Below are positions 9,961 to 12,539 of a stretch of DNA of 64,000 nucleotides, piece by piece (positions within the stretch are counted from its first letter, which is position 1; the number at the start of each line of letters is the position of its first letter). The stretch lies in contig CAZZJC010000001.1 of NCBI GenBank assembly GCA_964654285.1, positions 5,030 through 69,029 of the forward strand, written 5' to 3'. The notes beneath the pieces are model-generated. The model saw nothing but the letters and a program-made list of their open reading frames with translations, did no database searches and was not told the origin of the DNA. The translations under genes were made by a program, and so were the position numbers. Source of the DNA: an uncultured Candidatus Kuenenia sp. GTDB taxonomy: Bacteria > Planctomycetota > UBA11346.

Positions 9961-10761
9961 ATGCGGACGATCGGCGTCGACGACCTGGAACCGACCCTCA
10001 GCATCGCCAACTGGTGGGAACCCGAATCAGGGATGCGCTGGGGTCCGCGCATCCTCGACGACCTGGAACTGGTCCTCGTCCACGCCGGTCGCTACCGCTA
10101 CCGCGTCACCGGCGGCCCCTGGCAGGCGGTGGTCGAGCGCGAGGTGCTGTTCATCCCGCCCGGCGTCGAGCATGAACTGGAGGTCGACCTGCGCTCCGGC
10201 CGGTCGGGCATCTCGTGCTGGCACGGAGAACTGCTGCCGCACGGCACCTGGCTCGCGGGCGACTACCGCCCGGCGATCGAACCCCCGACCGTGACCGCGA
10301 TCGGCAGCCAGCCCTTCATCGTCGCCTGCTTCCGCCGCCTGGCCGAACTCTACCACGACCACGGCACGCGCCGGACCGTCCTCGCCCGCGATCTGGTGCG
10401 GATGATCTGGGTCCACCTCATGGACCTGTGGACATCGGAGCAGGGCCCGGCCCCGCGCACCCGCCTCGATCCGATGATCGCCTGGGTGCGCGCACGCCTG
10501 CACCTGCCGCTTGGCCGCAACCAGATCGCCCACGCTTTCGGCCTGACGCCCCAACACGTCAACGCGTTGTTCAAGCACGGTCTGGGCACCACGCCGGGTG
10601 CGTTCGTGCGGCGCGAACGCGTCCTGCGCGCCTGGCACGATCTCCACGCGGGCGGTTTGAGCGTGGCCGCGGCGGCGCAGCGCTGGGGCTTCACCGATCC
10701 CTTCCATTTTTCCCGCGTTTTCCGCAAGGAGATGGGGTTTCCACCGAGCCGGGCGCGGTAG
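9961..10761 (+). CDS. AraC-family transcriptional regulator with N-terminal cupin-like sensor domain
   Basis: C-terminal AraC HTH (LGRNQIAHAFGLTPQHVNALFKHGLGTTPGAFVRRERVLRAWHDL...FTDPFHFSRVFRKEMGFPP). Confidence 0.8.
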   Translation: MRTIGVDDLEPTLSIANWWEPESGMRWGPRILDDLELVLVHAGRYRYRVTGGPWQAVVEREVLFIPPGVEHELEVDLRSGRSGISCWHGELLPHGTWLAGDYRPAIEPPTVTAIGSQPFIVACFRRLAELYHDHGTRRTVLARDLVRMIWVHLMDLWTSEQGPAPRTRLDPMIAWVRARLHLPLGRNQIAHAFGLTPQHVNALFKHGLGTTPGAFVRRERVLRAWHDLHAGGLSVAAAAQRWGFTDPFHFSRVFRKEMGFPPSRAR

Positions 10762-10798
10762 CTGCGCTGACGTCGGGCGACGCGATCCCGATTGACAG

Positions 10799-11158
10799 TT
10801 ACAGGTCGAACGCCAAGCGGATCCCGTTGTCGATGGCGAACATCACGGCTGCGTCCAGCTCGCCGACGCAGGTGGTGAGCCGACTCCGGTTGATGGTCAT
10901 CACCTGCGACACGTTGACCACGCTGTCCTTTGGCAGGCCTGATTCCTTCGCGGTGATCAGGACGTTGCCTGGCGCCTTGGCCAAGGCCAGATTCGTGGTC
11001 AGGATGGAAACCATCACCGTCGGAATTCGACTGCCGTTGAAGAGATCGGATTGGATGATCAGGACTGGCTGCCGGTCGCCGGGTTCATTTCCCTGTGGGG
11101 TATCCAGGTTGGCCCAATGGATTTCGCCGCGTTTCTTGTCCAGTCGTTCGCGGGCAGG
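10799..11158 (-). CDS. PemK/MazF-family type II toxin. The conserved N-terminus has no canonical in-frame start, so this may be frameshifted or a pseudogene.
   Basis: Manual translation of the minus frame from the TGA at 11159-11161 gives PARERLDKKRGEIHWANLDTPQGNEPGDRQPVLIIQSDLFNGSRIPTV-MVSILTTNLALAKAPGNVLITAKESGLPKDSVVNVSQVMTINRSRLTTCVGELDAAVMFAIDNGIRLAFDL. This is a full PemK/MazF fold signature (RGEIxW...D...G.E..G.RP.L(I/V)). The ORF track only calls the last 72 aa from an internal GTG at 11017. Confidence 0.6.
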   Translation of the reverse strand, partial: PARERLDKKRGEIHWANLDTPQGNEPGDRQPVLIIQSDLFNGSRIPTVMVSILTTNLALAKAPGNVLITAKESGLPKDSVVNVSQVMTINRSRLTTCVGELDAAVMFAIDNGIRLAFDL

Positions 11159-11370
11159 TCATGGATGGCGGCTGCTTCCGCATGCACGTCTGGCGCCGTC
11201 GTTCCGGCATACACGGCATCCAATTGGTCGGTGATGGACCGCTTTTCCACATGGGCTACATACCAGCGGATCGCCGTGGCGTAGAATTCGCTGCGACTCA
11301 TGTGTTTCCGCCGGGATACTCGTTCGGCGGCGTGGTAGACCGCGTCAGGCAGGGAAATGGCGGTCTTCAT
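11059..11370 (-). CDS. Ribbon-helix-helix (CopG/MazE-like) antitoxin; ORF appears C-terminally extended across the toxin N-terminus
   Basis: N-terminus MKTAISLPDAVYHAAERVSRRKHMSRSEFYATAIRWYV is a classic RHH antitoxin. The ORF continues about 100 nt into the toxin region in a different frame. Confidence 0.65.
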   Translation of the reverse strand: MKTAISLPDAVYHAAERVSRRKHMSRSEFYATAIRWYVAHVEKRSITDQLDAVYAGTTAPDVHAEAAAIHDLPANDWTRNAAKSIGPTWIPHREMNPATGSQS

Positions 11371-11426
11371 GGCGGGGAGTATGACCGGTAGAACCTCGGG
11401 TCAGGCCGCCATTCAGCCGATGCGCG

Positions 11427-12539
11427 TTAGGCGCAGCCCTTCTTGCCGCAGCCGCAACCGTGTTCTGCGGAGTCCTCGCCTTCCGGCACCAGTTCCAGGC
11501 CGTAGCGGGCGGCGGCGTCGCGCCAGTAGTCGGGCGCGGTGCCGAGGGTGGTGAGGTAGTTGCCGACCATGATCGCGTTCACGCCGGCGCGGAAGACCTC
11601 GTGGATGCGCTCGCCGAGGACGACCTCCTTGCCGCCGGCGGCCATGATGTTCAGCGTCGGCCACATCAGGCGGAAGACGGCGAGGGTGGTCAGGGCCTCG
11701 TCGGCGGGGAGGGGGGCGAGATGGCCGAAGCCGGTGCCGGGGACGGGATTGAGGAAGTTGATCGGCACCATGTCGGGGGCGATGAAGCGGACCTGCTCGG
11801 CGAATTCGATGCGCTGGTCCTTCGTCTCGCCCATGCCGATGATGCCGCCCGAGCACAATCCCATGCCGGCCTTGCGGATGTAGTTGATGGTCTTGAGGCG
11901 GTCGTCGAAGCTGTGGCTGGTGCAGACGTGATCGAAGTGCGAGCGCGCGGTTTCCAGGTTGTGGCCGTAGACCTTGGCGCCGGCCTGGGCGATCCGATCC
12001 GCGCAGTGCTGGCTGGCCAGGATGCCCAGGTTCACGTCGGCGCGCACGCCGCCCTGCCCGGCCAGTTTCTCGATCGCGTTGCAGACCATGTCGAGCTGGG
12101 TGCCTTCCTTGACACCCTTCCAGGCGGCGACCAGGCCGAGCGCCTTCGCGCCGTTGGCTGCGGCCGAGCTCGCCGCATTGACGATGTCGGCGTCAGGCAG
12201 CCAGCCGGTCTTGTCGTAGCCGGTCGCGCTGCTGCCCGACGCCTGGGCGCAGTACGAGCAGTTTTCCGAGCAATTCCCGGCCTTCACGTTGAGGATCGAA
12301 CAGCACGACAGGCGGTGGCCGAGGAATCGCGCCCGCACCTGCTGCGCCGCCGCGAACAGCGCCTCCTGCGCCGGTGAGCCGGGTTCCACGTCGAGCAGGG
12401 CACGGGCCTGGGCGGCGGTGAGTTCGGCGCCGGCGCAGATGGCGTCGGCGAGCGCGGTGATGGCCGAGGGATCGGTCGGATCCAGGTCGGCGTCGGTCGG
12501 GGCTGCGGAGGGCGCGGTCGTGGGCATGTCCGGAAGCAT
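11427..12539 (-). CDS. bioB: Biotin synthase (radical SAM)
   Basis: CxxxCxxC radical-SAM motif (GNCSENCSYCAQ). Extensive BioB-like blocks (GLVAAWKG...YGHNLETARSHFDHVCTSHSFDDRLKTINYIRKAGMGLCSGGIIGMGET...VPINFLNPVPGTGF). Confidence 0.85.
   Translation of the reverse strand: MLPDMPTTAPSAAPTDADLDPTDPSAITALADAICAGAELTAAQARALLDVEPGSPAQEALFAAAQQVRARFLGHRLSCCSILNVKAGNCSENCSYCAQASGSSATGYDKTGWLPDADIVNAASSAAANGAKALGLVAAWKGVKEGTQLDMVCNAIEKLAGQGGVRADVNLGILASQHCADRIAQAGAKVYGHNLETARSHFDHVCTSHSFDDRLKTINYIRKAGMGLCSGGIIGMGETKDQRIEFAEQVRFIAPDMVPINFLNPVPGTGFGHLAPLPADEALTTLAVFRLMWPTLNIMAAGGKEVVLGERIHEVFRAGVNAIMVGNYLTTLGTAPDYWRDAAARYGLELVPEGEDSAEHGCGCGKKGCA

Follow-up and report, generated by a model that had tools for sequence, protein, structure and literature searches.

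A mazEF-type toxin-antitoxin cassette in a Candidatus Kuenenia genome, with a toxin probably inactivated through its stop/start overlap

A toxin frame of the MazF/PemK type that has no in-frame start codon, overlapped out of frame by a ribbon-helix-helix (RHH) antitoxin open reading frame which continues beyond its expected end, raises the question of whether the module has been inactivated, incorrectly sequenced or is expressed in an unusual manner. All three possibilities were put forward in the first-pass annotation of the 64,000-nucleotide stretch of Candidatus Kuenenia DNA analysed here, hereafter called the window, as a frameshift-inactivated toxin leaving an orphan antitoxin, a sequencing indel, or non-canonical initiation or frameshifting. 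The locus is best explained, with a probability of roughly 0.8, as a horizontally acquired mazEF-type type II cassette, most similar to MazEF6 (MazEF-mt3) of Mycobacterium tuberculosis, in which the toxin has recently been inactivated. The features of the locus are given in Table 1.

Table 1 Features of the mazEF-type locus, in positions of the window
Feature	Position	Strand	Description
Inserted cassette, 659 bp	10762..11420	minus	antitoxin and toxin remnant with 50 nt upstream and 37 nt downstream
Antitoxin ORF, present state	11059..11370	minus	ATG 11370 to TGA 11061-11059, 103 aa
Putative ancestral antitoxin CDS	11137..11370	minus	78 codons, C-terminus ...LPANDWT; from in silico reversion of 11136
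Toxin frame, open reading	TGA 11161-11159 to stop TAA 10801-10799	minus	translation PARERLDKKRGEIHWANLD...LAFDL
MazF/PemK toxin remnant	10799..11137	minus	112 codons from the former start, and stop; frame unbroken, without canonical start
Former ATGA stop/start overlap, now AAGA	11134..11137	minus	changed base 11136 (A on minus strand, T on plus strand)
Coincidental ATGA	11159..11162	minus	third-frame ATG (11162-11160) and the TGA opening the toxin frame
Near-cognate CTG codon	11141..11143	minus	two codons 5' of the lost ATG; sole plausible near-cognate initiation site
Gln codon CAG	11069..11071	minus	at catalytic Arg position; second lesion of the toxin

The module descends from the MazEF family, and its toxin is by sequence a member of the PFAM family PF02452. 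The translation of the toxin frame, PARERLDKKRGEIHWANLDTPQGNEPGDRQPVLIIQSDLFN...IRLAFDL, matched PF02452 with 90 bits (cut-off 23.1, E=1.5e-25) over profile positions 1-108 of 109, and the complete PemK/MazF signature that had been noticed directly after the TGA at 11161-11159 is thus present over nearly the whole profile. A protein search with the toxin frame gave 488 proteins, of which the best were 60-75 % identical and nearly all had 112-114 amino acids; the structurally characterized MazF6/MazF-mt3 (5HK0) matched it with E=1.6e-32. Homologues of 112 amino acids (54-75 % identical) start with MKRGEIYW, and the Met of the homologue N-termini (MKRGEIYWANLD) aligns to the first Lys of KKRGEI in the window, i.e. 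to the codon AAG at 11137-11135. The ten codons from the TGA to the conserved Gly of the RGEIxW block are CCT GCC CGC GAA CGA CTG GAC AAG AAA CGC. When all ten were checked, none was ATG, GTG or TTG, as had been stated at first sight, and the toxin, which covers the family profile in full length, has no canonical start codon near its N-terminus. No second copy of mazEF was found in the window.

The antitoxin ORF consists of a MazE-type RHH core of 78 amino acids and a read-through tail of 25 codons, RNAAKSIGPTWIPHREMNPATGSQS, past the presumed ancestral stop. The homologues found with the 103-amino-acid sequence were mostly of 75-84 amino acids and spanned just approximately the first 75 % of the ORF, and the few that were longer were so at the N-terminus only. 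In 20 of 20 aligned homologues the C-terminus lies at ...DW or ...DWx of a DLPxxDW motif, the closest homologue (P0125) ending in NDWT, and a counterpart of the 25-residue tail was absent from all homologues. The ORF does read on from 11370 past its stop to 11059, as described in the first-pass annotation, the extension being 25 codons rather than the approximately 30 counted there.

The assignment of the antitoxin to the RHH proteins holds at the level of the family. The window antitoxin alone had zero model matches in Pfam and NCBIfam, and individual family members matched RHH_1, RHH_3 and RHH_5 weakly. The antitoxin family profile matched the N-terminal RHH domain of M. tuberculosis MazE6 (7WJ0, E=2.5e-12), B. 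subtilis EndoAI (4ME7_E, 1.6e-6) and CopG repressors, and it is through this profile that membership among the RHH DNA-binding domains was established. The window antitoxin retains 15 of the 15 columns that are invariant in the family alignment, Trp77 included. Its C-terminal toxin-binding segment keeps Trp77 and the DLPxxDW motif, and is then followed by the 25 further residues resulting from the loss of the stop.

Both anomalies meet at the junction of the two genes. The closest loci have the sequence TGG-ACA-TGA-AAC, with an ATGA overlap, where the window has TGG-ACA-AGA-AAC in a gapless alignment. In the closest mazEF relative, on the metagenomic contig L023 (toxin 74 % identical), the antitoxin (1271-1504) and the toxin (1501-1839) overlap by 4 nt. 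The junction reads AAT GAT TGG ACA TGA AAC GCG GAG AAA TC in L023 (GATTGGACATGAAACGCGGAGAAATC; in shorter form TGGACATGAAACGCGG) and AAC GAC TGG ACA AGA AAC GCG GCG AAA TC in the window (GACTGGACAAGAAACGCGGCGAAATC; in shorter form TGGACAAGAAACGCGG), the change of T to A being the sole difference at the junction itself. The locus of a Planctomycetota MAG (L001, 69 % identity) also has an ATGA overlap (GGAAATGAGG), and ATGA is found at the same column in L059, L049 and L051 (GGACATGATC). The T-to-A difference at 11136 converts the toxin ATG to AAG and antitoxin codon 79 (11136-11134) from TGA to AGA. Reversion of base 11136 in silico gave an antitoxin of 78 amino acids (...NDWT) and a toxin of 112 amino acids (MKRGEIHW...), both of the lengths usual in the family.

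A copy of the cassette from the same species that retained the T was not found, the best matches having 69 % identity in the genome scan and 68 % in the metagenome scan. Since close relatives were not found, we infer the ancestral state from the homologous cassettes of other genomes (55-75 % identity), and the ATGA would be ancestral as judged from these relatives, not as observed in the cassette's own lineage. The toxin start was compared in 79 non-redundant loci with at least 45 % identity. The conserved Gly was preceded, at a distance of 1-9 codons, by a canonical start (ATG, GTG or TTG) in all of them (79/79), and in 51 this start was located exactly at the AAG column of the window. As none of the 79 relatives is without a canonical start, the missing start of the window toxin is not a chance pattern. 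The antitoxin stop of the relatives mostly overlaps or abuts the toxin start, lying within 5 nt of it (the stop codon beginning 2 nt before the start in 31 loci, 1 nt after it in 13 loci and 4 nt after it in 12 loci). The overlapping or abutting stop and start of a type II operon are absent from the window, which has AAGA compared with the ATGA of the relatives closest at the junction.

An out-of-frame ATG, overlapping the TGA which opens the toxin frame, does exist in the ATGA at 11162-11159, as first annotated. It is not a coupling site, being a by-product of two codons of the antitoxin, CAT GAC (His-Asp of AIHDLP), at which the relatives have GCC GAT or GCT GAT, and the ancestral junction would be that at 11137-11134, 24 nt downstream. 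A frameshift or indel at 11162-11159 was considered and rejected, as L023, L001 and L059 align without gaps across the junction. Comparison with orthologous loci, which had been suggested as a check, revealed the expected ATGA coupling in the closest loci and one substitution instead of an indel. Of the options first listed, that of an inactivated toxin with a leftover antitoxin is retained, with a T-to-A substitution in place of the frameshift. A sequencing indel is not needed to explain the locus, and no homopolymer of at least 4 bases, nor any repeat, occurs at the junction.

The toxin also carries a second lesion. The window toxin was compared with 119 homologues at the 40 columns which were at least 85 % conserved, and it deviated at one of them, the Gln in GDRQPV; one deviation per 40 conserved columns is also the count of the median homologue. 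The homologues have Arg in this column in 118 of 119 cases and Ser in one, and the Arg codon of the closest loci is CGA or CGC. In a gapless alignment with 5HK0 (residues 5-114 to 5-114) the Gln falls on Arg25 of MazF-mt3. It also aligns with Arg25 of Bacillus cereus MazF (7BXY), which is regarded as equivalent to Arg25 in MazF of B. subtilis (PMC7354611). This residue corresponds to Arg29 in Escherichia coli MazF and is the general acid/base of the reaction (PMC7354611, PMC11394972). Mutants of Arg25 and Thr48 of the B. subtilis and B. cereus enzymes were inactive or severely impaired (PMC7354611), and the MazF-mt3 variant K23A/R24A/R25A was left with next to no activity (PMC11394972). The window toxin thus has Gln in place of the catalytic general acid/base Arg of PF02452. 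The Thr that stabilises the transition state, in the T-[ST]-N motif, is present, LTTNL of the window aligning with ITSNT of MazF-mt3 (Thr49-Ser50-Asn51), and the Thr49-x-Asn51 motif is kept.

The following course of events would account for these observations. The ancestral operon would have had the antitoxin first, the TGA of the antitoxin and the ATG of the toxin having bases in common within an ATGA overlap of 4 nt. One transversion, from T to A, at the T belonging to both codons (11136, minus strand) would have removed both signals together, leaving the toxin frame without a canonical initiation codon. The missing toxin start and the excess length of the antitoxin would then both go back to one substitution that hit both signals in the ATGA overlap. 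Coupled re-initiation would no longer be possible, because the antitoxin stop at the junction is gone, and ribosomes translating the antitoxin would read 25 codons more over the 5' end of the toxin, to the TGA at 11061-11059. The toxin would additionally have lost its general acid/base (Arg to Gln, 11071-11069), and because of this loss any trace product initiated at CTG or AAG would be catalytically crippled.

The toxin is accordingly likely not to be made or to be inactive. The antitoxin, whose RHH core and Trp77 are undamaged, would still be made and could persist as an orphan, tailed at its C-terminus, in the role of a repressor or anti-addiction protein. Since the catalytic Arg, the start codon and the stop/start coupling are all missing, the locus is regarded as a degenerate mazEF locus, made up of a toxin pseudogene and an extended antitoxin. 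The lack of other damage in the toxin frame suggests that the decay is recent. A frame that is intact apart from the two lesions fits very recent decay, and equally continued selection on some product.

Such a product could come from low expression of the toxin from CTG 11143-11141 or AAG 11137-11135, the only near-cognate codons in the 5' region of the toxin, which would leave either an attenuated live module or a Gln variant, unable to cleave, that is kept as a partner of the extended antitoxin for RNA binding or co-repression. This is consistent with a toxin frame that is unbroken over 112 codons, departs from the conserved columns at the Arg position only and keeps Thr49 and Asn51, and the in-frame CTG, two codons 5' of the old start, would give a product with a normal MazF N-terminus. 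However, 0 of the 79 relatives depend on a non-canonical start, and there is no Shine-Dalgarno-like motif (GGAG or AGGA) upstream of the CTG, with the reservation that initiation signals in Planctomycetota are poorly known. Furthermore, with the antitoxin stop gone coupled re-initiation is impossible, ribosomes in the extended antitoxin frame would cross the initiation site, and the missing catalytic Arg suggests that selection on nuclease activity has been relaxed. Low expression is therefore considered unlikely. Non-canonical initiation or frameshifting, as proposed at first, gained no positive support, neither a slippery heptamer nor GGAG/AGGA being present.

It is improbable that the A at 11136 is an error of sequencing, assembly or consensus, or a minority variant of the metagenome bin, and that the true locus has a normal ATGA. 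A single base would indeed explain both anomalies, and its reversion gives exactly the usual lengths of the family, but the change of Arg to Gln 65 nt away is a second, unlinked change of an inactivating type. The site is also outside any homopolymer or repeat, and the read-through product is identical in two sources, NCBI and Logan. Because of the second, independent lesion in the catalytic Arg a substitution error at 11136 is unlikely, and two independent changes of an inactivating type speak for a genuine, recent loss of function and against one miscalled base.

Little credence is given to domestication in one step, in which the hit on the ATGA would have silenced or attenuated the toxin and created a C-terminally extended RHH regulator, with the dead MazF kept as a CTG-made co-repressor or RNA-binding partner. 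If this were true, and if hits on shared bases were to recur across families, they would mark toxin-antitoxin domestication in a general way that is easy to search for. A programmed -1 ribosomal frameshift from the antitoxin into the toxin frame, giving a MazE-MazF fusion, is hardly credible, since, although the toxin frame lies at -1 with respect to that of the antitoxin, with both open over 11158-11062, no X XXY YYZ heptamer occurs in the antitoxin frame throughout the overlap, the arrangement is seen in no relative and a point mutation of the known ancestral state is sufficient for the geometry.

The 659 bp of the cassette are flanked by bioB and by the gene of an araC-family regulator, which are convergent. 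The bioB gene (11427-12539) is directly upstream, and the best named relatives of BioB are from Planctomycetota MAGs. In a sister genome with a BioB of 92 % identity, represented by two independent assemblies (L106 and L107), the gap between bioB and araC is 25 nt and the cassette is absent. The window aligned with the sister genome at 87 % identity over 13500-11421 and at 89 % identity over 10761-9001, and the 659 bp of window 11420-10762 stand in place of 19 bp. The GC content of the cassette is 0.61, compared with 0.685 in the whole window, and its GC3 is 0.72-0.81, compared with 0.88-0.92 in the flanking bioB and araC. From the empty site of the sister genome and the lower GC and GC3, it is concluded that the cassette is an insertion and probably of foreign origin; its precise loss in the sister genome is less likely. 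As the site of the sister genome is empty, the locus also provides a dated example of toxin-first decay in an acquired cassette.

A scan of 10600-11700 gave no sigma-70-like promoter, including in the 56-nt spacer after bioB, and one terminator-like match, which is at chance level. Direct and inverted repeats at the ends of the insertion were short only, namely the 5-mer GCGCA and an imperfect palindrome of 11 nt, which were indistinguishable from chance. On the minus strand GCGCA lies at 11421-11425, just outside one end of the insertion, and at 10763-10767, just inside the other, and the empty site of the sister genome has a single GAGCA. The GCGCA pair could represent a target-site duplication, microhomology, or chance in a genome of 68 % GC.

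The best match for the window toxin among solved structures is MazEF6/MazEF-mt3 of M. tuberculosis (Rv1991A/Rv1991c; 5HK0, 9IKD, 7WJ0). MazE6 (7WJ0) is likewise the best match for the N-terminal RHH domain of the antitoxin family, with which it has the motif MKTAISLPD...SRSEF in common. In MazE-mt3, too, a Trp (Trp82) closes the C-terminus (PMC11394972). The toxins of the two systems have Thr49 and Asn51 in common, whereas the window toxin has Gln for Arg25 and no start codon, and the window antitoxin has 25 residues beyond its Trp-Thr end. The host belongs to the Planctomycetota and is not an actinobacterium.

Endoribonuclease systems of Bacillus, namely EndoA/EndoAI of B. subtilis (4MDX, 4ME7) and MazF of B. 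cereus (7BXY), belong to the same PemK/MazF fold family (E about 1e-18 to 1e-19), and EndoAI (4ME7_E, E=1.6e-6) is of the RHH type, as is the antitoxin family of the window. The active site of Bacillus MazF is defined by the catalytic pair Arg25/Thr48 (PMC7354611). The window toxin differs in having Gln at the equivalent of Arg25, its bit scores with the Bacillus proteins are 69-74, compared with 115 for MazF6, and the Bacillus operons are intact.

E. coli MazEF and Kis-Kid (PemI-PemK) of plasmids R1/R100 are in the same Pfam family, PF02452, as the window toxin. They are antitoxin-first bicistronic type II modules, and their antitoxins have a DNA-binding domain of the AbrB/SpoVT type rather than RHH. 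MazF of the E. coli type is remote from the window toxin, the NCBIfam equivalogs MazF and ChpB giving 15 bits against cut-offs of 120-129, and Kid matched with E=0.009.

The decay of toxin-antitoxin modules toxin first, and the orphan antitoxins it leaves, are already familiar. Non-toxic MtvT/MtvA of the Pseudomonas aeruginosa plasmid pPAD8, as outlined in PMC11826091, is an example of a degenerate toxin-antitoxin locus. The window resembles it, so far as that outline goes, in that the toxin side is non-functional, in the window probably so, and the antitoxin gene persists. Compared with such degenerate loci, each lesion of the window can be assigned to individual bases, and by way of the ATGA overlap one lesion affects the two genes together. 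That both anomalies, which resembled a frameshift, are explained by a single base change there is the only mildly instructive point, and the locus raises no new question on how MazEF-type systems work.

The locus matters mainly for annotation, as a clean teaching case, since the stored calls are wrong for both genes. The calls stored for the 283,485-bp source contig (NCBI and Logan listings) include P0121, an antitoxin bearing the read-through tail, and P0026, a toxin that is cut short. P0026 is a toxin fragment of 71 amino acids that starts at the internal ATG 11014. P0121 is an antitoxin of 80 amino acids that starts at Met24 (ATG 11301), so that the RHH beta-strand MKTAISLP is missing and the 25-amino-acid tail is included. 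The incorrect starts of P0026 and P0121 are artefacts of the lesion.

A candidate operator was found around the antitoxin start codon. It is an imperfect inverted repeat with arms of 11 nt at 11356-11366 and 11403-11413 (AATGGCGGTCT / AGGCCGCCATT), which are 91 % complementary, 36 nt apart and flank the start codon, and a putative role in RHH autoregulation is suggested.

The only other homologue among the 119 without the catalytic Arg was the P0009 toxin (L024 1501-1869, L025 436-804; 71 % identity), which has Ser in its place (GDRSPV). Its cassette has approximately 20 extra nt between the ATGA stop of the antitoxin and the conserved ATG of the toxin, and may, to go by these changes, be a second copy that is decaying independently. 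On L023, a BrnT/BrnA toxin-antitoxin pair (521-1010) is located directly 5' of the mazEF relative, and since it adjoins upstream the L023 cassette is part of a toxin-antitoxin cluster.

Many relatives, among them L053, L052, L089, L041 and L056, have ATC or ATT at the position of the lost Met of the window, their real start being a GTG or ATG located 1-2 codons upstream (TGGTGATC or ATGGTAATC). The toxin start has therefore shifted repeatedly over the final codons of the antitoxin, with the overlap with the stop kept.
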